Of a DNA stretch of 64,000 bases, positions 12,758 through 59,271 are shown one piece after another. The position numbers and the translations under genes were made by a program. Numbering within the stretch: position 1 is the first letter of the stretch; every line of letters starts with the position of its first letter. Source of the DNA: Thermoanaerobaculia bacterium (lineage in GTDB: Bacteria; Acidobacteriota; Thermoanaerobaculia; Multivoradales; Multivoraceae); contig OY762911.1 in the NCBI GenBank assembly GCA_963666565.1, positions 2,656,001 to 2,720,000 of the forward strand. Direction: 5' to 3'. The notes beneath the pieces were generated by a model. The model was given only the letters and a program-made list of their open reading frames with translations, searched no databases and had not been told where the DNA came from.

Positions 12758-12792
12758 TCCCGGTCCCGCGAACGCCTGTCGTCACAGAGCAT

Positions 12793-12821
12793 GTGTAGCA
12801 CCCAGTGCGACGTTTCGTCAA
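12793..12821 (-). promoter_or_regulatory. Putative TA promoter/operator
   Basis: Imperfect palindrome GTAGCAC-CCA-GTGCGAC (12795-12811) downstream of a minus-strand TTGACG (12821-12816). Confidence 0.55.
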
Positions 12822-12991
12822 CCGGCCGTAGGGACCTCGCGCGTCTCGCCGGGGAGGGCTTGACGTGCCGAGGTCTGCCTGTTCGCCATTCGCTGGAGCA
12901 TCGCTTTCGCGGAGAGGCGTCCCGCTGGTTGGAGGCGGCTGCCATGAGCGACCTGGGCGTCGTCTGCTGGATGGCGGTGCTTTGACGGGAT

Positions 12992-25370: not shown

Positions 25371-26723
<1,353 letters not shown>

Positions 26724-26767
26724 GGGGTTACTATTGCGGCGTCGTTCGCAAAGGAGCGCCCGCGTCC

Positions 26768-28288
26768 ATGTCCCCGGCCAGCCAGAGTTTCCGTTTCCGC
26801 GAGTCCCGCCGCGTACTGCGGGAGGCGCCGGTGCGGCTGTCGGGTTTCGGCGAGGGCGGCGAACTCGTCGCGCGGACCCGCGACATCGCGACCGGCGGCA
26901 TGTTCGTGTCCACGCCCGAGGCGCGGCCGGTCGGTACCGGGGCGTCGTTCGTGCTGGAACTGGGATCGGACGCATCGGACACGGTCCGGGGCGAGGCCAC
27001 GGTGGTCTGGGTGCGCGAGGCGTCGGGCGGCGCCGATCAGCCGGCCGGTATGGGCATGCGGTTCACGAGCGTGGAACCGCCCGGAGAGGAACGCCTGGCG
27101 ATGCTGTTCTCCGAACAGCCGGACGAGGCGGCCGCTCCGTCCGCGGCCGCGGAAGCGGCGCCGCCGGCGCCCGCCGAAGCGGCTGGCGTGGAGGACGAGG
27201 CGCCGACGACGGCGCCGGAGGACGATGCCGCGCCGCCCGAAGAACCGGAACCCGCAGAGCCGGTCGACCGCTCGCAAACGGCTGCCGTCGAGAGCGAAGA
27301 AGGAGAGGTGGAAGAGGTGACGCCGGAAGTCGAGACCGAAGCCGGCGCGGAGGCGCCGCTCCCGGACGAGGCGGCGGCCGGGGAGGAGGTCTCCGGTACC
27401 CGCGCCGAGCTGTTCGGCGACCTCGCGGGCGATGACGACGACTGGATGAAGCCGGAGTCCGACAGCCCTTCCTGGGTCTGGCCCACGGTGGTCGGCGTCA
27501 TTCTGGTCGGCGTCCTGCTGTTCTTCCTGCGCGGGCCGCTGATGCGGCTCGCCGGCATGGGCGGCGCCGAGGATCAGCCGCCCGCCGTCGCGCAGAGCTT
27601 CGACCTGCCGGCGCCGGTCGAGGACCCCGGCGCCGCGGCGCCGCCGCCCGCGCCCGCGGGGGCGCCCGCCGACAGCCGGCTGCCCGTCCCCCCGGGGGAC
27701 GCCGTTTCCTCGGAGGAGTCCGTTACCCGCGAGGCGGACGGGCCGGCGGAGAGCGCCGCCGCGTCTTCGGCGCCGGCCGGGGTCGCGGAACCGCCTCCGG
27801 TCGAGCCGTCTCCCGTCGAGCCGTCTCAGCCTGAACCGTCCCCGGCCCGGCCCGCCGTTGTAACCACCGCCCGGACGGAGGCGGCCCGATCTCCCGAGCC
27901 CGTCGCTCCGCCGCGCGCGCCGGCGCCTGCACGGCCGGCCCCGGCGGACGCCGCCGCGCCGCCCGCGAACGCGACGGCGCTGCGCTCCATCACTGCCTCG
28001 GTCCGGGATGGCCGGACGGTCGTCGAGATCGCCGGCAACGCCCCCTTCCGGCGCCACCACGTGATGCCGCTGGAGGCGCCGCCGCGGCTGCTCGTTCGGC
28101 TGATCGGCGTACAGCGCGCCTACGACGCGAGCGCGGTCGCGGCGCCCCGGCTGCGCGGCCTTCGCACCGCCGTTCATGGGCGGGGAGCGACGCGGAACCT
28201 GCACGTCGTGCTCGATCTCGCGGCGCCCGACATGGTGGCGACGGTCGAGCGGCGCGGCGACCGGGTCGTCGTCAACCTCTCGGATTGA
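26768..28288 (+). CDS. PilZ domain + acidic linker + TM + Pro-rich linker + AMIN domain protein
   Basis: R..RR (RESRR), DIATGGMFV, GMGMRF; TM WVWPTVVGVILVGVLLFFL; C-terminal PPRLLVRL...HVVLDL. Confidence 0.8.
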   Translation: MSPASQSFRFRESRRVLREAPVRLSGFGEGGELVARTRDIATGGMFVSTPEARPVGTGASFVLELGSDASDTVRGEATVVWVREASGGADQPAGMGMRFTSVEPPGEERLAMLFSEQPDEAAAPSAAAEAAPPAPAEAAGVEDEAPTTAPEDDAAPPEEPEPAEPVDRSQTAAVESEEGEVEEVTPEVETEAGAEAPLPDEAAAGEEVSGTRAELFGDLAGDDDDWMKPESDSPSWVWPTVVGVILVGVLLFFLRGPLMRLAGMGGAEDQPPAVAQSFDLPAPVEDPGAAAPPPAPAGAPADSRLPVPPGDAVSSEESVTREADGPAESAAASSAPAGVAEPPPVEPSPVEPSQPEPSPARPAVVTTARTEAARSPEPVAPPRAPAPARPAPADAAAPPANATALRSITASVRDGRTVVEIAGNAPFRRHHVMPLEAPPRLLVRLIGVQRAYDASAVAAPRLRGLRTAVHGRGATRNLHVVLDLAAPDMVATVERRGDRVVVNLSD

Positions 28289-29991
28289 CCCTGGCGGAGT
28301 CCGCCGGAAGGGAGAGCGCGCCGGCGGCGTCCGGCAGCGCCGCGCCGCGGATTGCGGCCGGCATCGTCGCCAGCCGCGTGCTCGGCCTGGCGCGGGAGGC
28401 CGCGATCGCCGGGGTCGCCGGCGTCGGCGCCCTGACCGACATCCTGGCGATCGCGTTTCGGGCGCCGAACGTCCTGCAGAATCTGCTCGGGGACCAGGCG
28501 CTCTCGGCATCCTTCATTCCGGTCTACAGCCGCCTCCTGGCGGAGGGCCGTCGCCGGGAGGCCGGCGCCCTGGCCGGGGCGGTGTTCGGGTTGCTGTTCT
28601 CGGCGATGGCCGTCCTCAGTCTGCTTGGCGTCCTGCTGGCGCCCTGGCTCGTGCGCCTGCTGGTCCCCGGGCTGGCCGGCGACGCGGATCTGGTGGCCGC
28701 CGGCGCCATGACCCTCGACCGCCAGGAACTGACCGTTGCGGCGGTCCGGATCTGCTTCCCGATGGTCGGGGCGATCACGCTGTCCGCCTGGTGTCTCGGC
28801 GTCCTGAACAGCCATCGCCGGTTTCTTCTGCCGTACCTGGCCCCGTGCTTCTGGAACGCGAGCGTGATCGCCGCGGTTCTTTTCGTCGCCGAACGAACCG
28901 GCGGCGACGGCGTAGACCGGCTCGAGACGCTGGCGTTCGCGGTTTGCTGGGGCGGTCTGGCCGGCGGCCTCCTCCAGTTCGCCGTACAGCTTCCCCTGGT
29001 GCTCCGGGTGACGGAGGGGTTGCGGCCGTCGCTCAGCCTCCGCCCGGCGGGCGTGCGGACGACGCTGACCAACCTCGGGCCGGCGGTCGCCGCCCGGGGC
29101 GTAGGTCAACTCGGCGCCTGGGTCGATCTCTTCCTGGCTTCCTTCCTGGTCGAGGGCGCGTTCGCGGCGCTGACCTGGGGGCAACGCCTGTACCTGCTCC
29201 CCATCTCCCTCTTCGCCGTCTCGGTGGCGGCGGCGGAACTGCCGGAGCTCTCGCGGCTCCGCGGCGAGGGGGAGGAACGGGCGAGAGCCGCGGCGGAGCG
29301 CGCGCGGCGGTCCCTGGCCGCCATGTCGTTCCTGGTGGCGCCGACGATGGTCGGCTACCTGCTGCTGGGGTTCGGGATCGTCGGGGCGATCTACCGGCGC
29401 GGCGAGTTCGGGCTCGCCGACAACGGGCTCGTGTTCCTGGTGCTCGCCGCGTACTCCCTGGGTCTGCTGGCGTCCAGCGCGTCGCGGCTGCTGCAGAGCG
29501 TGTTCTTCTCGCTGGGAGACACCCGTAGTCCGGCGCGCATCGCGGCGATGCGGCTCGTCCTTGCCGCCGGGGTCGGCGCCGCGATGATGGTCCTGCTCGA
29601 CCGGGTCGCGGTCGGGGAGGCGTTGCCCTGGCTGGGCGTGCCGGCGGCGGACGCCGAGGCTCTGCGCCTGGGGGCGGTGGGGCTGGCGCTGGCGTCCGCG
29701 GCCGGTAGCTGGCTCGAGCTGGGGCTGTTGCTCGGGCGGCTGAGGGGAAGAGGGGTGGCCGTGCCGGCGCCCTGGCGCGCGTGGCTGCGGCACCTGGCGC
29801 TTGCGGCGTGCTCGGTCGTGCCCTGGGCGGCCGCCCGGACCATCGTGCCGGGGCCGCCCTGGATCGCCGGCGCCGTCCCCGCGGTCGGCTTCGCCGCGAC
29901 CTACCTGGCGGCGTCGTACCTGCTCAAGGTCCCCGAGGCGCGGACGCTCTGGCGCTGGCTCTCGGAAACCCGGCGGGGCCGGGAGGCGTAG
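28285..29991 (+). CDS. murJ: Lipid II flippase MurJ
   Basis: SRVLGLARE, AFRAPN.L, SASFIPVY, QRLYLLP, GDTRSP. Confidence 0.93.
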   Translation: MTLAESAGRESAPAASGSAAPRIAAGIVASRVLGLAREAAIAGVAGVGALTDILAIAFRAPNVLQNLLGDQALSASFIPVYSRLLAEGRRREAGALAGAVFGLLFSAMAVLSLLGVLLAPWLVRLLVPGLAGDADLVAAGAMTLDRQELTVAAVRICFPMVGAITLSAWCLGVLNSHRRFLLPYLAPCFWNASVIAAVLFVAERTGGDGVDRLETLAFAVCWGGLAGGLLQFAVQLPLVLRVTEGLRPSLSLRPAGVRTTLTNLGPAVAARGVGQLGAWVDLFLASFLVEGAFAALTWGQRLYLLPISLFAVSVAAAELPELSRLRGEGEERARAAAERARRSLAAMSFLVAPTMVGYLLLGFGIVGAIYRRGEFGLADNGLVFLVLAAYSLGLLASSASRLLQSVFFSLGDTRSPARIAAMRLVLAAGVGAAMMVLLDRVAVGEALPWLGVPAADAEALRLGAVGLALASAAGSWLELGLLLGRLRGRGVAVPAPWRAWLRHLALAACSVVPWAAARTIVPGPPWIAGAVPAVGFAATYLAASYLLKVPEARTLWRWLSETRRGREA

Positions 29992-30836: not shown

Positions 30837-31964
30837 ATGCGAGGCCACGGGCCCGGCTGGCCGGGGCGTTCCGCCCTGGTCGCCGCCGTCTTCGCCTCGC
30901 TCGCCTTGGGATGTGCATCGACCGGCGTGCGGGAGGCCGGCGAGAGCGCCCTCCTGCGGGAACTGGAGCGGCGCCAGGTGAGCCGCGCCCTGGTGCCCTT
31001 CGCGCTGAACGACGACGTGGCCGCCTGGGTTCACGAAGCGGTCGGCGCGGTCGATCGGGACAAACGGCTCGATCGCCTGGTCGAAGCGGTGACGGATTCC
31101 TCCATGCTCGGCGTCGAGTACAAGGCCGGCCGGACCGGCTCCGCCGTCGAGGTCTTCGAGACCCGGACCGCGAACTGCCTGGCCTTCACCCAGTTGTTCG
31201 TCGGCATGGCCCGCGAACTCGACCTCGCGGGCTACTTCGTCGAGGTGTCGCACGTCGAGAACTTCGAGCGCGAGGGCGATCTGATCGTCATCTCCGATCA
31301 CGTCGCGGTGGGTTTCGGGCCCCGGCACGCGATGCGGGTGATCGACTTCGGCCTGCTCGAGAACGAGCGGGGTTTCCGGGTGTCGCCGATCAGCGATCTG
31401 ACGGCGACCGCCCTCTACTACTCGAATCGCGGCGCCGAGGCGTTGCGGGCCGACCGGCTCGACGAGGCTGTAGCCTGGCTCGAGGACGCCGTCCGGATCG
31501 ACCCGGAACTCGCGTCCGCCTGGGCGAACCTGGGAGTCGCCCAGCGCCGGAGCGGCCGCGCCGACCGGGCGGAGCGGAGCTACCGGAAGGCCCTGGAGGT
31601 CGATCCGGGCGCCAGTTCGGCCCTCGTGAACCTGGCCGTGCTGCTGCGCCTGGACGGTCGGACCGCCGAGGCGGACGACCTTCTCCTGTTGGCGGACGGC
31701 AGGCGCAATCGCAACCCGTTCACCTACGTCGCCCTCGGCGACCTGAGCCTGCGCTACGGCCGCCTGGACGAGGCGGAACGCTTCTACAGCCGGGCGCGGC
31801 GGCTTGGACCCGACGAGGCGGCGCCGGCGGCGGCGCTGGGCGAGGTGCTGCTGCGCCGGGGCGAGCGTAAGGCCGCCGAGAGGCTTCTGCGCCGCGCGCA
31901 GCGGCTGGAACCCGGCGGCGACCGCCGGATCGATCGGCTGGCGCGCCTCCTGGCGGGCGCCTGA
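30837..31964 (+). CDS. Lipoprotein with transglutaminase-like domain and TPR repeats (start could be 30660 or 30678)
   Basis: Lipobox ALGC; ANCLAF / DHVAV / VIDF Cys-His-Asp; TPRs AW.NLG, YRKAL..DP. Confidence 0.8.
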
Positions 31965-31999
31965 GAGCGGCCGGCCGGCCGCGCACCCGACCCTCTGCC

Positions 32000-34315
32000 G
32001 TGTCTTCCCTGTGGCAGCTCTGGATCGACACCGGCGGCACGTTCACCGACTGCATCGCGATCGACCCCGGGGGCTCGGCCCGCTGCGTGAAGGTCCTGAG
32101 CTCGGGCGCGGTCCGGGCCACCGTCGTCTCCATCGACGACAGGGGCCCGCGGCTGGAGACGCGCTTCGACCTGCCGGACGGCTTCTTCGCCGGCTACCGC
32201 GCGGCGCCCCTGGGCGGCGGCGCCGCGGCGCGGGTGGAACGGTGGTCGCGGGACGGAACCTGCCGGCTGTCCGCCGAGGGCGGCGGCGCCGCTCCCGGCC
32301 GGGATCCGCACGCCCGAGGACGGCCGCTCGGTCAGCGAGGCTCGCGGCGCGAGGACGCGCCGCCAGGGGTCGCTCCCGGCCAGGTGCTCGAACTCGTGTC
32401 GCCGGAGAACGCGCCGATCCTGGCGGCCCGCATCGCTACGGGCACGGCGCTGCACGAGCCGCTGCCGCCGTGCGACCTGCGGCTCGCGACCACGCGCGGC
32501 ACGAACGCCCTGTTGGAGCGGGCTGGCTCGCGGACCGCGCTCTTCGTCACGGAAGGGTTCGCCGACCTGCTGCTGATCGGCGACCAGGCGCGGCCCGACA
32601 TCTTCGCGCTCGCGGTCGAGCGGCCAGCGCCCCTCTACGAGCGGGCGGTCGAGGTCGCGGGCAGGCTCGACGCGGAGGGCCGGGAGCTCGCGCCGCTCGA
32701 CGAGGACGGCCTCGCGGCGGCCGCCCGCGCCCTTGTCGACGAGGGCTTCCGGGCCGCGGCCGTGGCGCTGATGCACAGCTACCGGAACCCGGACCACGAA
32801 CGGCGCGCCGAGCGCATCCTTCGCGACGCCGGCTTCGAGACGGTCTCGTGCTCGGCGGAACTGGCGCCCCTGATCAAGATCGTGCCGCGCGCGCACACCG
32901 CCGTGGTCGATGCCTACCTGGGCCGTGCGGTCGGCGGCTACCTGGAAACGACCGGCGCGGCGCTGGCGGGTGGCCGCGGGCCGGAGGCCGCCGGGAACGG
33001 CGGCGTCTCGCCCCGGGTGATGACCAGCGCCGGCGGCCTCGCCAGCTTCGCGAGCTACCGCCCCAAGGACAGCCTGCTGTCCGGTCCCGCCGGCGGCGTA
33101 GTGGGGGCGGCCGCGGCGGGGCGCGCGAGCGGCCACGACCGGGTGATCGGGTTCGACATGGGCGGCACCAGCACGGACGTCTCGCGCTACGACGGCGACT
33201 TCGAGTACAACTTCGAGTTTCGCGTCGGCGACGCGACGGTCGTGGCGCCGGCGCTGGCGATCGAGACGGTGGCCTCGGGCGGCGGCTCGATCTGCCGGGT
33301 CGATCACGGCCAGCTCAAGGTGGGGCCGGAGAGCGCGGGCGCGCGTCCCGGCCCCGCCTGCTACGGCGCCGGCGGCCCGCTGACGATCACCGACGTCAAC
33401 CTGCTGCTCGGGCGGATCGATTCGGCCGCCTTCGGCCTGCCGATCGACGTCGCCGCCGCCGAACGGCGTGCGGCGGAGGCCCTGGCGGATCTCGACGGCG
33501 CCGGCGAGGAACTGCTCGGCGGCTTCCTCGCGATCGCCAACGAACGGATGGCCGACGCGATCCGCCGGATCTCCATCTCGCGCGGCTACGACCCGGCGGA
33601 CTACGCCCTGGTCAGCTTCGGCGGCGCCGGCGGGCAGCACGCCTGCGCCATCGCCTCGGAGCTGGGCATGGCGACCGTCGTCGTGCCGGTCGACACGTCG
33701 CTGCTCAGCGCGGTCGGCCTGGGCCACGCCGTGCTGGAGCGCTTCGCTCACCGGCAGGTCCTCGAACCGCTCGACGGCGGGGTGGGCGCCGTGGTGCAGG
33801 AACTCGAGCGCGAGGCGCTGAGCCGGCTGCTGGAAGAGCGCGGCGCGAACCTGGAGGGCGCCGCGGTGCGGCGTCGGATCGTCCGGCTGCGGCTGCTCGG
33901 CCAGGAAACGGCGCTCGAAGTCGAGCCCGGTTCCGCGGAGCAGGCGCGGTCCGCGGAGGCCATCGCCGCGCTCTTCGCCGAGCGCTATCGGGCGGTCTAC
34001 GGCTACCCGCCGCCCGAGCATCCGATCGAGGTCGAGTCCGTCCGGGTGCTGGCTTCGACCGCTCCCGCCGCCGCGCGGCTCGACCGCGCGGGGGAGGTCC
34101 TTGCCGGCGACGCGCCCGTCCGCGCGCACCGGGCCTGGTTCGACGGCTGGCAGGCCGCCGCGCTCCTGCGCCGCGAGGAACTCGCTCCGGGCTTCGAGCG
34201 CTCCGGCCCCTGCCTGGTCCAGGAGCGGCACAGCATCACGGTGGTGGAGCCGGGCTGGAAGCTGCGCGTCGACGAGGCCGGAGCGCTCGTGCTCGACCGG
34301 CCGCCGGGTGCCTGA
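32000..34315 (+). CDS. Hydantoinase A / 5-oxoprolinase ATP-binding half
   Basis: [57 protein letters not shown]. Confidence 0.9.
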
Positions 34316-41439: not shown

Positions 41440-42612
41440 ATGGTGGAGTCGACCGGGGAAACCTCACGAGGCTGGATCGGCTGGTTGCAGGTCGCCGTGT
41501 TGGCGGCTGCGGTGATCGTGGGCGTCTACTTCGCCCGGTCGCCGAGTCTGCCGCCGCTGGACGAGCAGACGTTGCGCAGCCCGGCCGCGCCGGCGGTGCG
41601 GGTATCGGCGCCATCGCCGGGCGCCCATTCGTTGACCGTATCGCTGACCGGCGAAGTGAACGCGCGCCACCCGGTCGCGCTGCTGCCTCGGGCGGCGGGC
41701 GAGGTCGTGGCGGTGTCGCCGTCGCTGCGCCCGGGCGGGACGTTCAGGGCCGGCCAGACGCTGGTGACCATCGACTCCGTGGACGCGGAGATCTGGCTGC
41801 AACGGATGGAGGCGGTGCTCGCGGCGGAACGGGGGCGATTGCGCTGGCACCGGGACCGCGGTGCGCTGGATGCTCAGGAATACCGGGAACGGAACCCGGG
41901 CGCGGCCGTGCCGGCGGCGGTACAGCGGCTTGGCAAGATCGAGCGCTCCGAGGCGCAAGTACGAGCGGCCGAAGCCGACGTGAGAATGGCCGAGCGGCAA
42001 CTGGATGTAACTCGCCTGTCGGTGCCGTTCGCCGGCAGGGTGATCGACGCTGCCGTGTCCGTGGGTCAGATCGTTGGCGGCGGGGGCGCCATGGGCGGGG
42101 GCGCCATGGGCGGTGCGGCGGATAGCCTGGCCACGGTGTTCGACGGTCGTCTGGAAGTGCGGGCGCCGATCTCGGTAGCGGACCTCGCATACCTCGGCGA
42201 CCCGCGCGGTCTCGGGGCGACGGTTGTCACCGCCGAAGGCGCTTTTTCCGCGTCGGTGACGCAGGTTTCGGGGGTGCTGGAGCCGCAGACGCGGCTGTCG
42301 ACACTGGTGCTGGACTTCGCCGGGACCGACCGGCCCTTGCCGATGCCCGGCGCCTTTGCGGCAATTTCCGTGCGCGGGCCGGCGTACGACGACGCCTACC
42401 TGCTGCCGGACGAGGCGCACCGTGCTGGAGACAGCGTGTGGCTCGTGGACGACGGGCGTTTGCGGCGGCAGACGCCGCGAACGCTCGGGCGCACGGCCGA
42501 TGGCTGGATAGTGGAGGCGTTCGACGTGCGCGACGGCGTGGTTCTGGGCGCCGTGCCGGGAGAGCGCGACGGTCTGGCGGTGACGGCGATCGCCGGGGAC
42601 GACGAGCGATGA
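41440..42612 (+). CDS. RND periplasmic adaptor (MFP) 2
   Basis: GGAGG RBS, TM, AGEVV.VSP, LSVPFAGRV; contains a 15-bp tandem repeat (42079-42108, GGAMGGGAMG). Confidence 0.85.
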   Translation: MVESTGETSRGWIGWLQVAVLAAAVIVGVYFARSPSLPPLDEQTLRSPAAPAVRVSAPSPGAHSLTVSLTGEVNARHPVALLPRAAGEVVAVSPSLRPGGTFRAGQTLVTIDSVDAEIWLQRMEAVLAAERGRLRWHRDRGALDAQEYRERNPGAAVPAAVQRLGKIERSEAQVRAAEADVRMAERQLDVTRLSVPFAGRVIDAAVSVGQIVGGGGAMGGGAMGGAADSLATVFDGRLEVRAPISVADLAYLGDPRGLGATVVTAEGAFSASVTQVSGVLEPQTRLSTLVLDFAGTDRPLPMPGAFAAISVRGPAYDDAYLLPDEAHRAGDSVWLVDDGRLRRQTPRTLGRTADGWIVEAFDVRDGVVLGAVPGERDGLAVTAIAGDDER

Positions 42613-45600
42613 CCTCCGCCGACGGCGCCGGCGCGGGCGAGGGTTCGCGCGCGGCGGGTGCGGTGGTCCGCGCATTCGTGCGCAGCCGGGTGGCCGGCAA
42701 CCTGCTCATGCTGATCGCACTGGCGGGCGGCCTCCTGGTCGCATCCGGAATCGAAGTGGAGTTGATGCCGGCCATCGACACGAGGGTCGTCTCGGTCACG
42801 GTGCCGTATCCGGGCGCGAGTCCGAGCGAGGTGGAAGAGAGCGTCACGCGGCGGATCGAGGAACGGCTGATCGGTCTGCCCGGCGTGCGCCAGGTGCTTT
42901 CGGAAGCGTCGGCGGGGCTCGGCACCGTGGACGTGCAGCTGAAGACCTTCGCCCGCACCCGGGAAGTGGTGGATGAAGTACGCACGGCCGTCAGCCGCAT
43001 CGAGCGCTTCCCGCCGGTCGGCGCGGAGCAGCCGGAGATTGGCACCACGTTCGTCCACGTGCCGGCGGTCACGCTGGCGGTCGCATCGCCGGAGCTGTCG
43101 CCGGATGCACTGCGGCTGGCTGCCGAGCGCGTTCGGGAAGACATGCTGCGGCTGCCGTCGGTGACCAATGTGACGCTGGACTACGCGGCCGCTCGCGAGA
43201 TCGCGATAGAGGTGGACGAGGAAGCGCTGCGCGAGCACGGGCTGACGATCGGCGAGGTGGCGGAAACGCTGGGTGGATCCTCCGTGGAATCGACCTCGGG
43301 GCGGCTCTTGACCAGCGCCGGCGGGCTGGTCGTTCGGGTCAACGACCGGCGGATTACGGCCGCGGAGTTCGAGGATGTCGTGCTGCTCGGAACGCCGGGC
43401 GGCGCGCTGGTCACGGTGGCGGACGTGGCGGAGGTTCGCGAAGGCTTCGGCGACGCCGCCGGCGACAGCGAGCTCGACGGCGTGCCGGCCGTCTTCGTGA
43501 AGGCCCTGGCTACGGTCGATGGCGAGTCGGAGGTGAAGATCGCGCGGGAAGTGCTCGCCATGCTGGCCGGGTACGCGCCGCCGCCCGGGGCGGAGGTTTC
43601 CGTCTGGGAGGACAGTTCGCGGCAGGCGACTTCGCGCCTGGACGCGGTCCTCAACACCGGCGCGTTGGGCCTCGTGCTGGTGTTCGTGGTGCTCGCGCTG
43701 GTGTTCGACCTCCGGCTGGCGACGTGGGTGGCCGTCGGCCTTCCGGTGTCGTTCCTGGGCGCGGTCGTACTCTTCCCTGCGTTCGGCCTGACGTTCAATT
43801 TCGTGACGATCTACGGGCTGATCATGATGATCGGCATCGTGGTGGACGACGCGGTCGTGGTGGGAGAGAGCATCGCGACCGAGCGCGAGCGGGGCCTCTC
43901 GGGGCCGGAGGCCGCGGTAGTGGGGGCACGGCGGGTGTTCTGGCCGGTGGCGGTTGGCGTCGCGACGACGTTTCTGGCCTTCGTTCCGCTGCTGTTCACG
44001 TACGGAGTGGTCGGCCAGGTCATGAACGCGCTCCCCGTCGTTGCGGGCCTGGTGCTGGCGGTTTCGCTGCTCGAGGCGTTCCTGATCCTGCCGTCGCATC
44101 TCGCCCACGGCGGCGACTGGAGCCGCCAGCCGCTGGCGGGGTTGCAGGCGCGCGTGCGGGATGCCATCGACCGGATGCGCGACAGATGGACCGTGCCCGC
44201 GGTTGCCGCGGCGACGCGCCGGCCCGCCACGACGCTGGCGATTGCAGTCGCCGCCGTGGTCGCCGCCGTGGCCCTGTTCACGAGCAACATCGTGCGCTTC
44301 GGCGCACTGGCGCAGTTCCCGACCGGGAAGATCGAGGCCTCGCTGACCTATCCGGTGGGCACGCCGCTCGACGCCACCCGCGTCGGGGCAAAGCAGGTCG
44401 AGGCTGCGGCAAGGCTGACCAACGAGCAACTCGGTTCCCCGATTCAGGGCATTGCCACGGTGGTCGGGCACCATGCGCAACCGGGTCTTGTCCCGGACAG
44501 CGGCGGCCGGGCTACCCATGTCGCTTCGGTGACCTTGCGGCTGCGCGACGAGTCGAACCGCGCCGTCAGCAGCGATGAAGTGATGCGCTCGTGGCGGCGC
44601 AACGTCGGCCAGATCGTCGGCGTCGAGCGATTGCTCTACTCCACGGGGGACGCAAACGGGGTCCCCGCCGACTTCGGCATGGCCCTTGTCCACCCCGACC
44701 CTGAAGCGCTGGAGCGGATCGCTACGGAACTGATCGCCCGGATCAAGGCGTCGCCGGGCGTTATCGATGCCTACGACTCGCTGGTTCCGGGTCGGCGCCA
44801 CCTGGATCTGGAACTGACGCCCGCCGGGCAGGCCGTCGGGCTGACCGGCGCGGATCTCGCCACCCAGATCAGGGGGCGCTTCTTCGGCGCCGAGGTTCAG
44901 CGCATTCAGCGCGGACGGGACGAGATCAAGGTCATGGTGCGCTATCCGGAGGGTCGGCGGGGCAGCCTGGCTGAACTGGCGGACGAGCGCATCGAACTGG
45001 CGATGGGCGGCGACATTCCGCTCTCGGTGGCCGCGCGCGTGGTCGAGACCCGGGACTGGGAGACGCTGAGGCGCATCGACGGCCTGCCGGCGGTCGAAAT
45101 CGACAGTTCCCTCGACACGGCGGCGGTTACGGCTCGAGAGCTCTCCTCTCGCGTCGACGAGTTTCTCCCGGAGCTTGCGGCCCGCTACCCGGGCCTGGCC
45201 GTTGCCTGGAGTGTGGCGGGCGTCGAGGACGACGAACAGACCATGGGCCCGCTCGTCTATACGCTGCCGGTCGCGCTGTTGGTCATGTACACGCTGATGG
45301 CGGTGCAGTTCCGCAGCTACGTGCAGCCGCTGGTCATTCTGACGGCGATGCCGCTCGCGGGCGCGGGCGCCGTGCTGGCGCATTTCGTGTTGGGCTACGA
45401 CGTGACCCTGGCGTCCGTGTTCGGCCTGGTCGCCGTGCTTGGGGTCGTCATCAACGACACGCTGTTGCTGATGGACCGCAGCAACAGTCTGCGCGCGGCG
45501 CATTCGCTGCCGGCGATCGCCGCGATCGCCGGTGCCGTTCGCGAACGCTTCCGTCCGATCTTCCTGACCACGCTGACGACGGTCGTCGGGCTGCTTCCCG

Positions 45601-45782
45601 TGCTCTATCTGAAATCGGAAACGATGGCCAACTATGCGCCGCTGGTGGTCAGCATCGTCGGTGGCCTCGCGGCCGGAAGCGTCGGCATCCTGTTCGTCGT
45701 GCCGGCCATGCTGCTGCTTGGCGAAGGCGTGCGCGAACGCTTCGCGAGCAGGTACGCCGCGGCGACCCGGACCGCGCACTGA
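42609..45782 (+). CDS. RND permease 2
   Basis: VAGNLLM, YPGASPSEVEE, GIVVDDAVVVGE, GVVINDT, RFRPIFLTTLTT. Confidence 0.92.
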   Translation: MTSADGAGAGEGSRAAGAVVRAFVRSRVAGNLLMLIALAGGLLVASGIEVELMPAIDTRVVSVTVPYPGASPSEVEESVTRRIEERLIGLPGVRQVLSEASAGLGTVDVQLKTFARTREVVDEVRTAVSRIERFPPVGAEQPEIGTTFVHVPAVTLAVASPELSPDALRLAAERVREDMLRLPSVTNVTLDYAAAREIAIEVDEEALREHGLTIGEVAETLGGSSVESTSGRLLTSAGGLVVRVNDRRITAAEFEDVVLLGTPGGALVTVADVAEVREGFGDAAGDSELDGVPAVFVKALATVDGESEVKIAREVLAMLAGYAPPPGAEVSVWEDSSRQATSRLDAVLNTGALGLVLVFVVLALVFDLRLATWVAVGLPVSFLGAVVLFPAFGLTFNFVTIYGLIMMIGIVVDDAVVVGESIATERERGLSGPEAAVVGARRVFWPVAVGVATTFLAFVPLLFTYGVVGQVMNALPVVAGLVLAVSLLEAFLILPSHLAHGGDWSRQPLAGLQARVRDAIDRMRDRWTVPAVAAATRRPATTLAIAVAAVVAAVALFTSNIVRFGALAQFPTGKIEASLTYPVGTPLDATRVGAKQVEAAARLTNEQLGSPIQGIATVVGHHAQPGLVPDSGGRATHVASVTLRLRDESNRAVSSDEVMRSWRRNVGQIVGVERLLYSTGDANGVPADFGMALVHPDPEALERIATELIARIKASPGVIDAYDSLVPGRRHLDLELTPAGQAVGLTGADLATQIRGRFFGAEVQRIQRGRDEIKVMVRYPEGRRGSLAELADERIELAMGGDIPLSVAARVVETRDWETLRRIDGLPAVEIDSSLDTAAVTARELSSRVDEFLPELAARYPGLAVAWSVAGVEDDEQTMGPLVYTLPVALLVMYTLMAVQFRSYVQPLVILTAMPLAGAGAVLAHFVLGYDVTLASVFGLVAVLGVVINDTLLLMDRSNSLRAAHSLPAIAAIAGAVRERFRPIFLTTLTTVVGLLPVLYLKSETMANYAPLVVSIVGGLAAGSVGILFVVPAMLLLGEGVRERFASRYAAATRTAH

Positions 45783-50739: not shown

Positions 50740-53700
50740 CTAGTCCTGGACCGCAGGATCGCTCGGTTCTTCTGCGTGCTGGTTCCAGGCGTGGGCGAAG
50801 AAGCCGTAGCGTAGTCGTCCGTGCCACCGAGTCCACGGGATCGGGAACACCCTTGGTTCCACGGTCTCGGTTGAGTCCACGACGTACAGCCAGTACTCGG
50901 CTCCGTCTTCCTGCTGCAGCGCGTCGTTGACTTGGCGGGCGGACAGGAGGACGCTGGCGTCCTTTCCTTCGAATCGTCCCTGCACGCCCTTCACTTCAAT
51001 GCGGCGGAGCTCCCGGCCGGTCTTCGGGTCTCGGCTGAGCACGTCGAAACCGGGCTGGCCGTCTGGCGCTTCCAGAGCTTCTCGACCCTGCCTCTTCTCG
51101 AACTCCACGACCGCTCCGCGGGCTCTCTTGTCGCTTTTCGGCCCCGTCCTCGTCTTGGCCGAAGTCCTGCTGGCCGCGTTCGACTTCGACTCGCCGTCGC
51201 GCTTGGACTCGACGAAGACCGCGACCTGGTTCGCCGCTGGCCGTTCGGAGACCTTCTTCGGTTCCCTCGGTGCCGTTTCGACGACTGGCTCTCTGACTTC
51301 GTCGCTTTCCGCAACAGGCTCGTCGTGGTCGTTCGGCCTCAGGTCGTCGAGATCGGTCTCCACGCCGAGTCCATCCGCCAGCGTCTTGAGATGTGTTCGG
51401 AACAACCTCGAGTCCTCCAGCGCGAAGAGCGCTCCGGTCAGCCACGCGACCTCGTGGCCTCGCTGGCCAAGTCGGAAGTGGTTCACGAGCTGGTCGGCTG
51501 CCTCGACGGCGAAGCTCGACGGCTCGCCGGCGAGCCGGAGGATGTCGCCCTCGGCGTAGGCCGCGAGGCGGCGCTCCGTGTCTTCGACGCGCAGAGTCAA
51601 GTCCTCGTGGAAGGTCAGTTGCCGGATCTCCCGTCGATCCCCGAGCAGGGCCAAGGTCTGGACAAGTTGCTTGAGTCGGCCCGTCCACGGCGTCTGGCGA
51701 TCAACCGTCCTGCCGGGCAGGATCGTGACTTGGTCAGACAGCAAGGGAATGTCGAGGCGCTCGGCGACCCGGCGAACCGATTGGGCCGTTTCTCCCAGGT
51801 GGGCCGCCGCCACCGCGATTCGACCGCCGGAGAGCGACTGGCGGATGAACGGCGACTGGACATCGTCGACTATGAGCGAGGAGTTGTCCACAGGCCACCA
51901 CTGACCTTGCCCATGAAGCCGGGCGCGCTCTCGGTTCTCCTCCCAATGCGAAAGTGGTAGATCCCCGGCGTCGAGATCATCGAGCGCGTAGCGGTAGGCG
52001 GCGGCGATTCGGCTGCGAACTCGCTCCACTTGCGCAGGTCCCTCGTCCCACACAAGCACCAGGAAGTCCAGGGCTTGACGCCCCGTTGTGGTTGCCGGAA
52101 TCGAAGGGACGAGTTCGGCCACGATGGCCGCCAAGTCGTCGCTGACGGAAGACAAGGGGACGACCCAACCACCGAGATCGCTTCGTAGACCCTCGCCTAC
52201 GCCGCAGCGGCGGACGGCACGTCTGACCAAGGGTACGTCGTGGAGCGTCACGCCGTCGAGCGCGGCGTCAAGTTCGGCTCGTGTGACGAGTTTGGTACGG
52301 TACTCCTCTTGCACTTCCCGAAGGAGGCTGGCCAGTTCGGCGTCTGGCATCTCTTCCTCCCCGCGCAGCACGAGACGGCGGAGCGCCGGTGACTTCGGAA
52401 TGTTGTCGCCGAACGCGATGCCCTCTTGCCGCAGTACCTCGGCGAACTCCGAGTCAATGTCCGCGACCGGCGCATCTTCGTAGTCGGGATGGGGGGAGAG
52501 CAGCGCATCGCCCGGCTTGCGCCGTTTCCCGTCCGCGCAGAGCAGCCAAGCGTGGTGGCGTAGATCCTGAGTCCAGTTACACGGTGTCGTCCCGCGTCTC
52601 GTCTTGGTGCCGTAGAAGCTTCCTTCGGCTCGCTTCCTTCCACGGTGCCTAAGGGAGCTGGGCCTGTCGCTCAACCAAACCTGCAGTGCCTCGGCGGGAA
52701 CATCGGCGACGGGGAAGGGAAACTCGTAGTCCAACACCCTGTAGCCGCCGTTCGCGCGGGTCCTCGGCGGTTCAGCACCGATTTGTCGCTGGACCATCCA
52801 GTAGTCTGTGGAGGATGTCCTCAACTCCCGGAGCTTGACTTGGCCTGCGACGCCGAGTCGCTCCAGGAACAGGATCACCGCCCGTCGGCCTTCGATGAAG
52901 GCGTAGTCCTCGACGAGTGCGGGCCTGTTCTGGAAGAGGTCCCGGCGACATCGGCCATGGTCGACAAGCGGGTCCGCGAGCAAGGCTTCGCGGGGTCTGC
53001 GAGCTCCATCCTCCGTCATCACAAGGGGCACGAGATCCTGGCGCCGTTCGCCCCGCCGGAGTGCCCATTCGAGGAGTTCAACCAGCGGGAGATCGTCCTT
53101 GTCCTCGACCGCGTCACAGGCTCTCTCAACGACGGACGCGAGTTTCACGTCCTGCTGCAGGCCCTTGAGCCATGCGGCGCCGGGATGGCGCGATTGTCTC
53201 ACCCGATTGCGTAGCCCTGCCGGAAGCCGCTGATCCGGTTGGGGAAGGAGCCCCGCGAGTGCCTTCGCGACAGCAGGACCGCTCAGCTCCTTTTCGGAAG
53301 GCGGCTCTTCGTTCAGGAAACGCGTGCGTCCTGCCGCCAGCCATGTACCCGCCTCGGTGGGGACGGCTGGCACGTCTTGCCATCCTCGATCGTCGATGCC
53401 GTGCCAAAGCGCGAACAGAGCATCCGTACGCTCATCCTCGGGCAGTTCGGCCAACGCGTCCCACCAAACGGGCAGCGTCTCCGACCAGCGAACGTCGCCT
53501 CGTTCCACGCTACCTGCGCAGCCGAGCCAACGCAGAAAGTCGACGCCACGCTTACCGAGGACTCCCTCCTGCACGAGTTCCCGGTCGAACAACAGGTCCG
53601 GGCGCCAGTCAGGTCGGCGACCGAAGTCCTCCCGGAACCCGCGAGGGAGGCGGACGGCTCTGCTCAGACTGCTGTATCCGCCCGGTTCGGTCCCATGAAT

Positions 53701-54912
53701 CGGCACGACACTCAGGTCGCCGAGCGCTCTGGTGAAGTCCTCCTGAAAGTGCCCCAGCGCATCGGAGAGCGGGGCGTCGTCCTTCGTCGGGTCAGCCAGA
53801 AGCCGGTATCCCGCTTCCTTGGACTCTTCGGGTTGCTTCTTGAGCCAGACGAGGATCTGGCGAACGAGTTCGGGGACTTGCCTCACGATGGCTTGCTGCC
53901 AGGCGTTCTCCTCGATGGGCCTCAGGTTCTGGCGGTCGAGATCGACGAGCCAGTCGGCCTGTAGGTGGAAGCCGAACGGCACGCGCGTCTGGGTCGGGAG
54001 TGTCGCGTAAACGCGCCCGCGGTCCGGTGGATCGGACCTGCCGTCACTGTCAAGCGGCAGCAATGCGATGACTTGCCGCTCCGGCCGTTGGCCCCGAGCG
54101 TCACGTTGATCGTTGAGTTCGCTGCGTGCCTCCAGGAACGCACGCATTTCGTCGTTTCCGGGGCGGTAGTTGGAGGCAAACGACTGCCACTGGAAGAGCT
54201 TCCCATCGGACGACGATCGGACTTCAACGACGCCGTCCTTGGCGGAGAGGCGCCACGTCACGTCGTCGATGCGTACCTCTTCGAGGCCGCGGAGCGCAAG
54301 GACCGCGAGCGGGATCGGATCGTCGGGGGCCGCGAGACGCTCAAGGTCGGCCAGAAGAGGCGGGTCGGGATCCGCCCGGTGGCTGAGCTGAAAGGCGGTG
54401 GTGTAGTCGGCGTCCGGATTCAGCGGTGGGGGATCTTCGTCCCAGTCTGGAAGCAGCGTGTCGAACCAACGGATGACTCTCGCTCCAAGGTCCCCTCGGT
54501 CGGTGGTGACGTTGAAGCGGAGGCGCCATCCGAACCCGGAGACTCGCGCTCGGCGAAATCGGGCGAAGACCGACTTGAAGCCCACCCCCATGAACCCGAT
54601 CGCGGCGAGTCCCTTCGTGGATTGTCCGAGCGATGCCAGAGCCCGGACGTGTTCCTCGTCCAGAGCTTGCCCGCCGTCGTGCTGGAAGCGGACAGTGCCT
54701 TCGTCGATCCGCCGCCACTCAACCCGCCGGGCACCCGCGTCGATGGCGTTCTGGGTCAGTTCGTACACGTAGGTCCAAGGATGGGAGTGGCCGGCAGAGA
54801 GCATCCGCTCTACGGCTGACCGGGCGGCTGGACCGAACTCCTTCTCGTTCTCCTGCCGTACCCGCGACACGAAGCGGCGGTGGGGTTCGGACTGCGGCAT
54901 GGCGTTACCCAT
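50740..54912 (-). CDS. Sacsin/GHKL-type ATPase fused to a C-terminal NOV (DUF3883) PD-(D/E)xK nuclease-like domain
   Basis: YELTQNAIDA, FQHDG, GQSTK..IGFMGVGFKSVF, YATLPT...FHLQADW; C-terminal AVVEFE...PGFDVLS...RRIEVKG...YWLYVV. Start at 54912 or 54900. Confidence 0.85.
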   Translation of the reverse strand: MGNAMPQSEPHRRFVSRVRQENEKEFGPAARSAVERMLSAGHSHPWTYVYELTQNAIDAGARRVEWRRIDEGTVRFQHDGGQALDEEHVRALASLGQSTKGLAAIGFMGVGFKSVFARFRRARVSGFGWRLRFNVTTDRGDLGARVIRWFDTLLPDWDEDPPPLNPDADYTTAFQLSHRADPDPPLLADLERLAAPDDPIPLAVLALRGLEEVRIDDVTWRLSAKDGVVEVRSSSDGKLFQWQSFASNYRPGNDEMRAFLEARSELNDQRDARGQRPERQVIALLPLDSDGRSDPPDRGRVYATLPTQTRVPFGFHLQADWLVDLDRQNLRPIEENAWQQAIVRQVPELVRQILVWLKKQPEESKEAGYRLLADPTKDDAPLSDALGHFQEDFTRALGDLSVVPIHGTEPGGYSSLSRAVRLPRGFREDFGRRPDWRPDLLFDRELVQEGVLGKRGVDFLRWLGCAGSVERGDVRWSETLPVWWDALAELPEDERTDALFALWHGIDDRGWQDVPAVPTEAGTWLAAGRTRFLNEEPPSEKELSGPAVAKALAGLLPQPDQRLPAGLRNRVRQSRHPGAAWLKGLQQDVKLASVVERACDAVEDKDDLPLVELLEWALRRGERRQDLVPLVMTEDGARRPREALLADPLVDHGRCRRDLFQNRPALVEDYAFIEGRRAVILFLERLGVAGQVKLRELRTSSTDYWMVQRQIGAEPPRTRANGGYRVLDYEFPFPVADVPAEALQVWLSDRPSSLRHRGRKRAEGSFYGTKTRRGTTPCNWTQDLRHHAWLLCADGKRRKPGDALLSPHPDYEDAPVADIDSEFAEVLRQEGIAFGDNIPKSPALRRLVLRGEEEMPDAELASLLREVQEEYRTKLVTRAELDAALDGVTLHDVPLVRRAVRRCGVGEGLRSDLGGWVVPLSSVSDDLAAIVAELVPSIPATTTGRQALDFLVLVWDEGPAQVERVRSRIAAAYRYALDDLDAGDLPLSHWEENRERARLHGQGQWWPVDNSSLIVDDVQSPFIRQSLSGGRIAVAAAHLGETAQSVRRVAERLDIPLLSDQVTILPGRTVDRQTPWTGRLKQLVQTLALLGDRREIRQLTFHEDLTLRVEDTERRLAAYAEGDILRLAGEPSSFAVEAADQLVNHFRLGQRGHEVAWLTGALFALEDSRLFRTHLKTLADGLGVETDLDDLRPNDHDEPVAESDEVREPVVETAPREPKKVSERPAANQVAVFVESKRDGESKSNAASRTSAKTRTGPKSDKRARGAVVEFEKRQGREALEAPDGQPGFDVLSRDPKTGRELRRIEVKGVQGRFEGKDASVLLSARQVNDALQQEDGAEYWLYVVDSTETVEPRVFPIPWTRWHGRLRYGFFAHAWNQHAEEPSDPAVQD

Positions 54913-55135
54913 CGAGAAGCTCGAAGAGCCGCTTCCGGCTCATCCCGGCGGTTCGCATGTTCTTGAGGATGATGCCCACCGGCACGTCCTTGCCCATGGG
55001 GATGACCACGGGGCGGCTCGCGCCTTCCTTGGTCAGGGTCAGGTGAGAGCCGACCTGGTGCTTCCTGGTCCAGCCGTCCCGTTCGAAGACGCGGACGAGC
55101 CGGCGCGGCCTAATGGGCCGTAGCGGCCTGGACAA
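54905..55135 (-). CDS. hicA: HicA family toxin
   Basis: 76 aa; GW...QVGSH, VVIPM, G.I...MR.AGMS. Confidence 0.88.
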   Translation of the reverse strand: MSRPLRPIRPRRLVRVFERDGWTRKHQVGSHLTLTKEGASRPVVIPMGKDVPVGIILKNMRTAGMSRKRLFELLDG

Positions 55136-55454
55136 GCTGCTGCCTCGTCTGGAATGGCACCATGCGATCTGTGGTGCTGGCAGCGGAGTAGCGGTTCTCG
55201 GTCGAGGTCTCGAAGCCGCAGTCCCTCAGGACTTCGTCCAGGGTTCCGATGTCGTAGCAGGTGAAGAGGAAGGCGCCCAGAGCCTCGCCCAGCATCTCCT
55301 GGGCCTCCTGCCGGTCCGCGCCGTGGCTTGCTACGTCCAGGAGAGGACACGACGCGATCCACGCGTCTCCCTCCACGTGGAAGTCGACGGGCACCGTCAT
55401 CCTGAAGTGGACGCGGTCCGGGCGGGCGTCAACGAGGATACTGGCTTCAGGCAT
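55110..55454 (-). CDS. hicB: HicB-like antitoxin (short, no obvious DNA-binding domain)
   Basis: EGDAWIASCPLLDVASHGADRQEA..ML.EAL; GTLDEVL..CGF; overlaps hicA. Confidence 0.8.
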   Translation of the reverse strand: MPEASILVDARPDRVHFRMTVPVDFHVEGDAWIASCPLLDVASHGADRQEAQEMLGEALGAFLFTCYDIGTLDEVLRDCGFETSTENRYSAASTTDRMVPFQTRQQLVQAATAH

Positions 55455-55636
55455 GAGCGAGGTTCCGGTCCAGGCGTCCAGACTACACCAGCGTCCGGGC
55501 GGGGGCGACGATGTCGGCGTCGTTCGCCTCCTGTGCCGCCGTGGCCGCTGATAGCCTGACGGTTCTCGTCAGGACCAGCGCAGGCGACCGGGACTCCGGC
55601 GCGCGCCGCCCGCAATCGGGGAGGGGATTCACCGTG

Positions 55637-58558: not shown

Positions 58559-58825
58559 GTGGCCTTCAAGCAACTGACGGTTCGTGGCCTGGACGAGGAC
58601 ATCGTTCACGAGCTTGAGCGCATCGCGGAAGAAGAGGACGTTTCGCTGAATCAGTCCGTCAGGAAGCTGCTGCGCCGGGGGCTCGCCCATTCGGGCAATG
58701 AGGCTGACGGCGTGATCGGGAACTCCCTCGATCACCTCATCGGCACCTGGACCGCCGAGGAAGCGGACAAGTTCGACCGGGCGGTAGCGGACTTCAACGT
58801 CATCGACGAGTCGATGTGGAAGTGA
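58559..58825 (+). CDS. vapB: VapB/FitA-like ribbon-helix-helix antitoxin
   Basis: KQLTVRGLD...L...A.....SLN; LIGTWT.EEA..F, IDESMWK. Confidence 0.85.
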   Translation: MAFKQLTVRGLDEDIVHELERIAEEEDVSLNQSVRKLLRRGLAHSGNEADGVIGNSLDHLIGTWTAEEADKFDRAVADFNVIDESMWK

Positions 58826-59271
58826 GCGTCTATCTGCTCGACACCGACGCCTACTCGCATCTGAGGCGCGGTCATCGGCAGCTTGCGGGTCTCGTCCGAT
58901 CCTCGACGAGGATCTTTCTCTCGACGGTCGTGGCCGGCGAGCTTCTCTACGGCTTCCGCCATGGAGACCGCTTCGACGAGAACGTCGAGGAACTCGAGTC
59001 CTTCCTGCGGAGCCCGCTGGTGGAGGTCGTGCCGGTCAGCATGAGGACGAGTGATCGGTACTCGCGCATCGCCGCGGCTCTTCGGGCGTACGGCAGACCG
59101 ATTCCGACGAACGACATCTGGATCGCCGCGCACGCCATGGAGACGGGGAGCGAGCTGCTCTCCTTCGATCGTCACTACGAGCGGGTGGACGGTCTCGTTT
59201 GGAGAAGGCTCCGGACCGAGTCGGTCCGCCAGCAGCCGCCGCTCGACTACCGCAGACCTTCCGAACGGTAA
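58822..59271 (+). CDS. vapC: VapC PIN-domain toxin with a C-terminal tail from the duplicated host gene end
   Basis: LLDTDAY, VAGELLYGF, GRPIPTNDIWIAAHA, LLSFDRHY; GTGA overlap with the antitoxin. Confidence 0.92.
   Translation: MSVYLLDTDAYSHLRRGHRQLAGLVRSSTRIFLSTVVAGELLYGFRHGDRFDENVEELESFLRSPLVEVVPVSMRTSDRYSRIAAALRAYGRPIPTNDIWIAAHAMETGSELLSFDRHYERVDGLVWRRLRTESVRQQPPLDYRRPSER
59228..59271 (+). repeat. Direct repeat, right copy (encodes the VapC C-terminus)
   Basis: Encodes QQPPLDYRRPSER*, versus QQPPLDYRRPPER* in the amidohydrolase. Confidence 0.92.

Follow-up and report, generated by a model that had tools for sequence, protein, structure and literature searches.

The window analysed here is a stretch of 64,000 nucleotides from a Thermoanaerobaculia bacterium (GenBank assembly GCA_963666565.1, contig OY762911.1, positions 2,656,001 to 2,720,000 of the forward strand); all positions given below are counted within it. 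Between 50740 and 55454, the minus strand carries three open reading frames (ORFs), all in the same orientation and overlapping, which we read, with somewhat more confidence than doubt, as two known modules in one probable operon: a compact hicBA toxin-antitoxin (TA) pair and a homologue of the defence protein Tiamat (TmtA). According to this reading, the link between the modules is genetic, each of them would act by its own mechanism, and the layout with a TA cassette in front of Tiamat is a recurrent one. Both Tiamat and class-2-like hicBA are already known; their TA-in-front layout we did not find in print, in a literature search at the level of titles and abstract openings. An initial annotation, made from the sequence alone, had described hicB and hicA coupled to a giant ATPase-nuclease and had not recognised the layout as a named system. 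The large gene does have a name: six TmtA models of PADLOC match its 1390-residue product, with E-values from 4.5e-33 to 2.6e-3.

The Tiamat gene occupies positions 50740-54912 (minus strand, as are all its segments below). The PADLOC matches span only the two ends of the protein (residues about 42-409 and 1178-1381) and leave the middle region uncovered. A GHKL/sacsin-type ATPase together with a conserved downstream segment extends over residues 47-409 (53686-54774), which is the range of the PADLOC model PDLC03966; the NCBIfam family NF047352 (sacsin N-terminal ATP-binding-like) matches residues 48-120 with 55.9 bits, compared to a cutoff of 50. Near the C-terminus, residues 1264-1350 (50863-51123) form a NOV_C/DUF3883 PD-(D/E)xK nuclease domain; PF13020 is the sole Pfam match in the protein (E-value 1.4e-7, 31.9 bits, cutoff 22.1). 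Judged by its sequence, the protein is a Tiamat according to the strict two-domain criterion of the preprint 10.64898/2026.09.30.754977; a further preprint (10.64898/2026.09.30.755639) defines the Tiamat family by the same three-part architecture. The domain order proposed in the initial annotation, a GHKL/sacsin ATPase, a long middle region and a NOV_C/DUF3883 nuclease, is thus borne out by the family matches, as is the assignment to defence.

The same holds for the motifs that had been picked out by eye. These are, in the ATPase, ELTQNAID (E51 to D58), HDG (H78-D79-G80) and GFMGVGFKS (G106 to S114) and, in the nuclease, the E..GFD..IEVK pattern with E1272, GFD (D1290) and IEVK (E1306, K1308). 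Among 38 homologues sharing 33-81% identity, residues E51, N55, D58, G80, K100, G106, G109 and G111 of the ATPase as well as E1272, D1290, E1306 and K1308 of the nuclease are invariant; all residues of the listed motifs are either invariant or conserved to at least 90%, which is far beyond chance. The segment LPT...FHLQADW is likewise conserved in this alignment, where T304, L305, D320 and W321 are invariant. For the Tiamat of B. cereus, hydrolysis of ATP, cleavage of single-stranded DNA and weak nicking of double-stranded DNA have been reported, and the exchange E44A abolishes defence (10.64898/2026.09.30.754977). E51 we assume to be the counterpart of E44.

A word-indexed search retrieved 222 homologues, mostly of 1380-1530 residues and, where named, annotated as "DUF3883 domain-containing protein". 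The middle region of about 780 residues (410-1185; 51358-53685) has no Pfam, NCBIfam or PADLOC match, yet it is conserved among the homologues with a mean column identity of 41% in an alignment of 45 sequences. It lies where Tiamats have, between the two enzymes, a long helical (TPR-like or solenoid) stretch, the DUF3684 region; for other Tiamats, TPR-like, "Fold B" and metalloprotease-like folds have been reported. It is followed by a charged linker (residues 1186-1255; 51148-51357), which is the least conserved segment: its identity to close relatives is 0.41-0.46, compared to 0.60-0.83 in the rest of the protein. Searches against PDB sequences gave no match for a whole-protein profile, a chance match (E-value 0.19) for the middle-region profile, a weak match to motif I of MutL (E-value 0.5) for the N-terminal 420 residues and chance-level matches for the C-terminal 140 residues. 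In the phage and plasmid collections no Tiamat match was found at 1e-10; two distant plasmid DUF3883 proteins (1e-3) had no annotated TA neighbours in the plasmid gene tables, which are incomplete.

The candidate operon begins with the hicB-like antitoxin gene (55110-55454, minus strand, 114 residues), which is followed by hicA (54905-55135, minus strand, 76 residues). HicA matches PF07927 (HicA_toxin) with an E-value of 6.5e-11 and 42.6 bits (cutoff 27), and it aligns with the GSH motif of HicA3 from the PDB (4p78_C, E-value 2.5e-3). Neither G29 nor H31 varies among 41 homologues; the conserved histidine we take to be the catalytic residue. On this sequence evidence the 76-residue protein is HicA, a predicted toxin of the RNase type. 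Of the HicB/HicA pair named in the initial annotation, the toxin was therefore recovered directly by its family, whereas the 114-residue protein can be called HicB-type only via its relatives and its predicted fold. A word search yielded ten close relatives besides the window's own sequence, and a phmmer search of the full library yielded 749. Among 77 aligned family members (the protein itself and 76 relatives), the families found were DUF7387 (40), PHD_like (29), UPF0150 (22) and HicB_lk_antitox (17). The AlphaFold2 model consists of four strands and a long helix, with a predicted local distance difference test (pLDDT) score above 90 over about residues 19-78; residues 89-114 score below 50 and are predicted to be a disordered tail. 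The best Foldseek matches of this model in the PDB are N-terminal domains of HicB (6g26, 6g1c, 4p78_A and 6hpb_B), all with E-values above 0.4; for 6g1c the probability is 0.96 and the root-mean-square deviation 1.3 Å over 54 columns. A family profile searched against the PDB matches 2yzt (0.026) and the HicB 6g1c (0.04), and a language-model atlas places the protein with an antitoxin cluster (score 0.94). No family match to a DNA-binding domain of the RHH, HTH or Phd type was found. We read the protein as a HicB-type antitoxin with a partial-RNase-H-like fold and without a DNA-binding domain, for which the evidence of identity is indirect. As a compact type II module, the small pair is closest to Class 2 hicBA of Gerdes.

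The junctions of the three genes are tight. The hicB stop codon TAG lies at 55110-55112 and the first start codon of hicA, a TTG, at 55135, which results in an overlap of 26 nucleotides; this TTG is a plausible start, as it coincides in the alignment with the point where the HicA homologues start. The 3' end of hicA reads GAT GGG TAA, with the stop codon at 54905-54907. Within this end, at 54912, an ATG creates an overlap of eight nucleotides with the Tiamat frame, and a second in-frame ATG follows at 54900, four nucleotides past the hicA stop; translation of Tiamat starts at one or the other. The co-orientation, the overlap and both start codons had been noted correctly in the initial annotation, as had the richer A/T content of the codons of the large gene: the GC content at third codon positions (GC3) is 0.76 for Tiamat, 0.88 for hicA and 0.84 for hicB, compared to 0.89-0.94 for six flanking genes, and the regional GC content is 0.64-0.67 across the three-gene segment versus about 0.68-0.77 around it. 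The flanks consist of metabolic genes, and the searches of the window revealed no further defence gene. In accordance with the earlier statement, no methylase or integrase domain was detected by Pfam among 46 ORFs of the window; 42 other ORFs gave no further PADLOC match. Neither direct repeats resembling att sites on both sides of the 5-kb segment nor a tRNA gene in the window was found.

The gene neighbourhood was compared across genomes by scanning one genome per species with tblastn. This gave 117 relatives, the best 80 of which were kept as loci L001-L080; they are the nearest tblastn relatives of this particular protein, and a small number of apparently TA-rich lineages account for many of them. 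Flanking genes were taken from a crude ORF list. The initial annotation had suggested asking whether homologues of the large protein repeatedly sit next to hicAB: homologues of both hicA and hicB lie directly upstream of Tiamat at six of the 80 loci (L001-L006), all of which belong to one syntenic clade. The outcome named there as a refutation, a complete lack of co-occurrence with hicAB, was in the strict sense not observed. A local profile search of the 7155 ORFs of the 80 loci confirmed this restriction. Members of the clade are labelled as Thermoanaerobaculia, Candidatus Multivorans and Holophagales, and they share with the window the order DUF3187, M20 peptidase and alcohol dehydrogenase, then hicB, hicA and Tiamat, then gamma-glutamyltranspeptidase (GGT) and M16 peptidase. 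The junction of -8 nucleotides between hicA and Tiamat is common to L001, L003 and L004.

Within the clade, hicBA is intact in six of six relatives, whereas Tiamat is intact in three (L003, L005, L006) and broken in three. In L001 it has suffered large deletions and changes of frame; in L002 it is interrupted after about residue 1035 by an ORF of 372 residues with DDE_3 transposase and HTH domains (L002 9154-10272); in L004 it is split into pieces of 337 and 920 residues. The hicBA pair is autonomous and stable, because it is intact where Tiamat is broken. Ratios of non-synonymous to synonymous substitution rates (dN/dS) were determined with a Nei-Gojobori script, leaving out M16 in L002-L005 and Tiamat in L001. 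Versus the six relatives, among them the three with a broken Tiamat, hicA has values of 0.09-0.12; for hicB they are 0.27-0.31, for Tiamat 0.22-0.28 and for the flanking enzymes (GGT, alcohol dehydrogenase, M20) 0.05-0.21. In dN, Tiamat exceeds the flanking enzymes about fourfold, and protein identity among relatives is 67-72% for Tiamat and 84-96% for these enzymes. Tiamat is an accessory gene, one that evolves quickly and frequently disappears; its GC3 and its divergence beside conserved flanks give it a foreign or variable character. An allelic replacement of Tiamat, which its synonymous divergence dS of 0.76-1.0 might suggest (most flanking genes: 0.4-0.6), was not relied on; the DUF3187 gene has a similar dS.

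In the region upstream of hicB, which separates it from the divergently oriented alcohol dehydrogenase gene, two conserved blocks emerge from the alignment of the window with L001-L006. The first is a near-invariant block of 12 nucleotides, CTGGTGTAGTCT (55480-55491, minus strand), 25 nucleotides upstream of the hicB ATG, which may serve as a promoter or leader element of the operon. The second is a block of 14 nucleotides, CAGGCTATCAGCGG (55545-55558, minus strand), which is invariant in seven of seven sequences and occurs only once in the window; it may belong to the dehydrogenase gene instead. The spacing between the blocks varies due to deletions and one insertion of 63 nucleotides, and the rest of the intergenic region is variable. 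Inverted repeats were not found upstream of hicB. Between 50400 and 55800 there is no terminator-like site on the minus strand and a single one on the plus strand. Tiamat is probably read from the hicBA transcript, because the junctions overlap, a terminator-like site is missing on this strand and the 12-nucleotide block is conserved in all seven genomes.

Support for a wider link between TA cassettes and Tiamat comes from the other loci. For L007-L080, all co-oriented ORFs ending at most 700 nucleotides upstream of the Tiamat start were searched with Pfam (215 proteins, a few repeats and two controls from L003 among them). ParD and ParE precede Tiamat in L020, MNT and HepT in the mutually syntenic loci L041, L045 and L046, MNT and HEPN in L066, and RHH and PIN in L059; L034 has a PIN_3 protein with no recognised antitoxin, and L015 a ParE-like protein scoring 22.2 bits (Pfam cutoff 28). 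Taken together, co-oriented TA-family genes are found upstream in 14 of the 75 loci with enough upstream sequence (six with hicBA and eight others). These correspond to about seven independent events, five of them with both partners recognised. The distance from the toxin stop to the Tiamat start ranges from -8 to +48 nucleotides for HicA and from -26 to +16 for HepT; it is +48 for ParE and 106-256 for the rest. In a tree of 52 full-length proteins (MAFFT FFT-NS-2 and FastTree), the TA-linked Tiamats are scattered. L006 and L041 lie on one contig, so that two Tiamat paralogues of the same genome are preceded by different TA families, hicBA and MNT-HepT, respectively. L007 and L010 also come from a single assembly and represent two divergent paralogues in one genome.

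Controls were restricted to ORFs of 75-250 residues, a size filter which keeps every toxin-family match of the test set. On the same strand shifted 3 kb upstream, TA families were found in none of 70 loci (88 ORFs). The upstream region itself, read on the opposite strand, likewise gave none in 75 loci (135 ORFs), and just downstream on the same strand they occurred in two of 52 loci (92 ORFs), namely RelB and YafQ in L065 and a Zeta_toxin-type protein in L039. When the controls from 3 kb upstream and from downstream were pooled (2/122), Fisher tests gave an excess at the upstream position with p = 3e-5 for all loci and p = 0.011 for the seven collapsed events; the co-orientation of all seven events has a binomial p of 0.016. 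The TA-in-front-of-Tiamat layout is probably non-random, with modest statistical support. Rarer upstream neighbours are an SF1 helicase (L018, L019), a C5 methylase (L026, L028; identical matches), an AAA-ATPase/PD-(D/E)xK protein (L030) and a NucS-like nuclease (L068).

How the locus might work follows from its two modules. HicA would be an RNase that arrests translation and is kept inactive by HicB. Tiamat would be an ATP-driven GHL clamp, connected via a long, variable middle region and a flexible linker to a nuclease that cuts the DNA of an invader; by analogy with B. cereus Tiamat, ATP hydrolysis and the cleavage of single-stranded or nicked DNA would be expected of it. Most likely, transcription from the hicB promoter extends through Tiamat, whose translation is coupled to that of hicA. 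The link to hicBA would be genetic and not an obligatory protein partnership; unrelated TA cassettes directly in front of Tiamat could plausibly lend it control of expression or protection from deletion, plus an arm that arrests translation. Candidate roles of the front pair are stabilisation against deletion, expression in response to infection and a second effector arm. While the data show the gene structure, the family assignments, the conservation and how the layout is distributed, we infer the co-transcription, every enzymatic activity and whatever benefit the linkage may bring. A bolder extension, which we consider rather unlikely, is that Tiamat operons have an exchangeable front module made of TA cassettes: unrelated families (HicBA, MNT-HepT/HEPN, ParDE, VapBC-like PIN) would have been recruited repeatedly, in every case co-oriented and immediately upstream, their arm of labile antitoxin and RNase-type toxin would work together with the sacsin-type ATPase-nuclease, and the sacsin-HEPN combination of animals would be a fused descendant. 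The module might then act as an infection-responsive expression switch, as a second effector arresting translation or as a guard.

Several observations weigh against the reading of two genetically linked modules in a recurrent layout. The pairing of hicBA with Tiamat is a single vertical event, since L001-L006 have the flanking genes of the window, and thus it provides no independent support. The HicB-like protein has no direct match in Pfam, NCBIfam or PADLOC, even at E-values up to 5, and none in a sequence search of the PDB; the fold matches mentioned above are weak throughout. A scan for promoter-like sites (sigma-70 consensus) found none. Upstream of Tiamat, 61 of the 75 loci are without a recognised TA gene, and both L015, with its sub-cutoff match, and L034 are toxin-only. 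Without L015 the event-level Fisher test gives p = 0.024, and the five two-partner events give p = 0.021; for the latter, co-orientation has p = 0.06. Moreover, the 80 loci are the best matches of 117, not a sample of all Tiamats, and many belong to a few taxa. Finally, the neighbourhood itself acquires TA cassettes repeatedly and appears prone to their insertion regardless of Tiamat, because two further ones are present in some of its members. A second TA pair lies at 58559-59271 on the plus strand, between the M20 peptidase and DUF3187 genes; it comprises a FitA-like RHH antitoxin of 88 residues and a PIN-domain toxin of 151 residues, which overlap (GC3 0.82), and this vapBC-like pair, a variable insertion, occurs only in the window, L002 and L005 (three of seven genomes). 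A second, weak HicA-like ORF (local profile E-value about 2e-4) is found in L003 (15470-15682) and L002 (13612-13824), within inserted DNA that separates the GGT gene from the M16 gene; in the window, these two genes directly overlap.

One rival explanation we hold to be distinctly possible though not probable: the two modules might be mere neighbours, a selfish hicBA cassette in a variable spot next to a horizontally acquired Tiamat, with no selected function in their adjacency and the recurrence elsewhere resulting from TA-rich genomes and the clustering of defence islands. The single inheritance of the pairing, the survival of hicBA beyond Tiamat in three of six relatives and the coming and going of the vapBC-like and HicA-like cassettes nearby all fit this explanation, as do the TA genes found downstream of Tiamat in two of 52 loci; the difference in GC3 between hicBA (0.84-0.88) and Tiamat makes a separate arrival possible. 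It accounts less well for the enrichment at the upstream same-strand position (14/75 versus 0/70, 0/75 and 2/52 in the controls), for the co-orientation of all TA events and the tight spacing of several, and for the genome in which each of two Tiamat paralogues has a TA family of its own in front. Another explanation is an integrated three-component system with direct cross-talk of its proteins, in which Tiamat would sense an infection and release or activate HicA (or HicB), or HicBA would guard Tiamat and fire once a phage inhibits it, comparable to Cas13a-HicAB. Translational coupling of the three genes via overlapping junctions, a HicB without a DNA-binding domain and hence with no obvious autoregulatory role, and the recurrence of RNase-type toxins in front of Tiamat speak for it, and there are precedents for a defence effector that binds HicB (PMC13448076) and for hicA and relE adjoining prokaryotic viperins (PMC10865869). 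We nevertheless regard such a system as improbable: in genomes with a dead Tiamat, hicBA is still intact and shows purifying selection, TA families of unrelated structure occupy the same position, contrary to a specific co-evolved interface, and most homologues have no recognised TA gene upstream.

Direct cross-talk between the Tiamat and HicBA proteins as in Cas13a-HicAB is less likely: one TA family can stand in for another to which it is unrelated, and hicBA endures where Tiamat is no longer intact. Of the two alternatives offered in the initial annotation, an obligatory partnership with HicA as guard or back-up is disfavoured, since hicBA and Tiamat are paired in the syntenic clade only, hicBA is kept where Tiamat is broken and TA genes are missing in front of most Tiamats; hicBA plus the large gene as a three-gene system is weakly supported. 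What remains is defence cargo linked to a TA pair, and the broader link between TA cassettes and Tiamat is favoured because unrelated TA families hold the same position in other lineages. It is very improbable, in our view, that the large protein has no role in defence and is a housekeeping or DNA-repair-type ATPase-nuclease or a decaying gene, as has been suggested for some Tiamat-like proteins beside metabolic genes. The metabolic flanks, the lack of another defence gene found in the window and the decay of Tiamat in three of six relatives would agree with this; however, the full-length ORF retains all catalytic residues and both domains of the strict definition, its dN/dS indicates purifying selection, and a low GC3 combined with fast divergence is typical of accessory genes. 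The favoured reading therefore remains that of a hicBA pair and a Tiamat homologue linked genetically in one probable operon.

Some features outside these modules deserve mention. Five further long ORFs of the window have a low GC3 of 0.74-0.79 (42396-45779, 31784-34231 and 26711-28510 on the minus strand, 11069-12025 and 12242-12985 on the plus strand), with no Pfam or PADLOC match at 1e-5; the one encoding 1127 residues adjoins the M16 peptidase gene and has only low-score matches in the atlas. One reading is that these are additional acquired genes, another that they do not represent genes. In four loci from Gemmatimonadota/Longimicrobiales, about 350 nucleotides directly upstream of Tiamat are highly conserved (L007 about 5590-5940, L008 about 445-790, L009 about 3590-3940, L010 about 5590-5940). 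The possibility that small ORFs in this region hide a TA pair was weighed, but the ORFs were rejected as coding: they are of low complexity, and the alignment has indels whose lengths are not multiples of three. The conserved stretch gave no Pfam, tRNA or Rfam match, and its consensus fold has only three compensatory pairs in four sequences; a structured leader or a small RNA is a possible interpretation. In L034, a tRNA-Ser gene (4825-4915) lies just upstream of the block formed by an ORF, the PIN_3 gene and Tiamat; tRNA genes are typical integration sites of islands.

So far, Tiamat has been viewed as a stand-alone defence protein or as having a helicase, a methylase or a nuclease for a partner. 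Should the TA cassettes be selected partners, they would provide a way into the regulation of Tiamat, for example its possible induction upon loss of a labile antitoxin, and they would add a further case of RNase toxins cooperating with immune effectors, besides viperins and Cas13a. If the adjacency is due to hitch-hiking, the locus consists of an ordinary divergent Tiamat gene beside an ordinary hicBA pair.

Among known systems, the B. cereus prototype of Tiamat, an anti-phage system made of a single protein (10.64898/2026.09.30.754977), is closest to the large protein. Both possess a GHL/sacsin-type ATPase, a long middle region, a flexible linker and a NOV_C nuclease within about 1400-1500 residues; the PADLOC TmtA profile matches, and the catalytic glutamate and the D/E-x-K residues are conserved here. 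The window protein differs in that profiles match it at both ends only, in its origin from a high-GC genome of acidobacterial type and in the TA pair in front. In the preprint, the neighbours of Tiamat are helicases, methyltransferases, nucleases and regulators; the terms HicA, HicB, ParD, VapC and nucleotidyltransferase do not appear in its main text. For the small genes, the nearest relative is Class 2 hicBA (Gerdes 2024, PMC10865869), which has the order hicBA and a small HicB of 63-103 codons without a DNA-binding domain, and which according to that source was not studied experimentally. The window pair shares with it the order hicB-then-hicA, the overlap of the genes, the small size of HicB, in which no DNA-binding domain is recognisable, and a single-domain HicA of about 76 residues; in contrast, its HicB has 114 residues, an extra helix, a disordered tail and no Pfam HicB match, and a large defence gene follows downstream.

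Three other systems resemble the combination. In the viperin neighbourhoods (Classes 9 and 10 of Gerdes, PMC10865869), a hicA or relE toxin gene likewise adjoins a stand-alone anti-phage enzyme and the toxin families vary; here, the partner is Tiamat and the gene of the cognate antitoxin is present. In the CRISPR-Cas13a/HicAB system CCTA (Chen et al. 2026, PMC13448076), the HicAB genes are contiguous with the effector and hicB or hicA lies immediately upstream; there, however, Cas13a binds and activates HicB and the crRNA neutralises HicA, whereas hicBA of our clade persists without an intact Tiamat. Animal sacsin (Anantharaman et al. 2013, PMC3710099), finally, joins sacsin-type GHL ATPase repeats to an RNase domain of the TA type, a C-terminal HEPN domain that was proposed to derive from a prokaryotic TA system. 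In sacsin the HEPN domain is fused and a PD-(D/E)xK nuclease is missing, while the bacterial genes are separate and the toxin of the window is HicA; four related loci, however, carry an MNT-HEPN/HepT pair before the Tiamat gene. The TA-Tiamat layout can be seen as the counterpart, at the level of bacterial gene neighbourhoods, of the ATPase-HEPN combination of animal sacsin.

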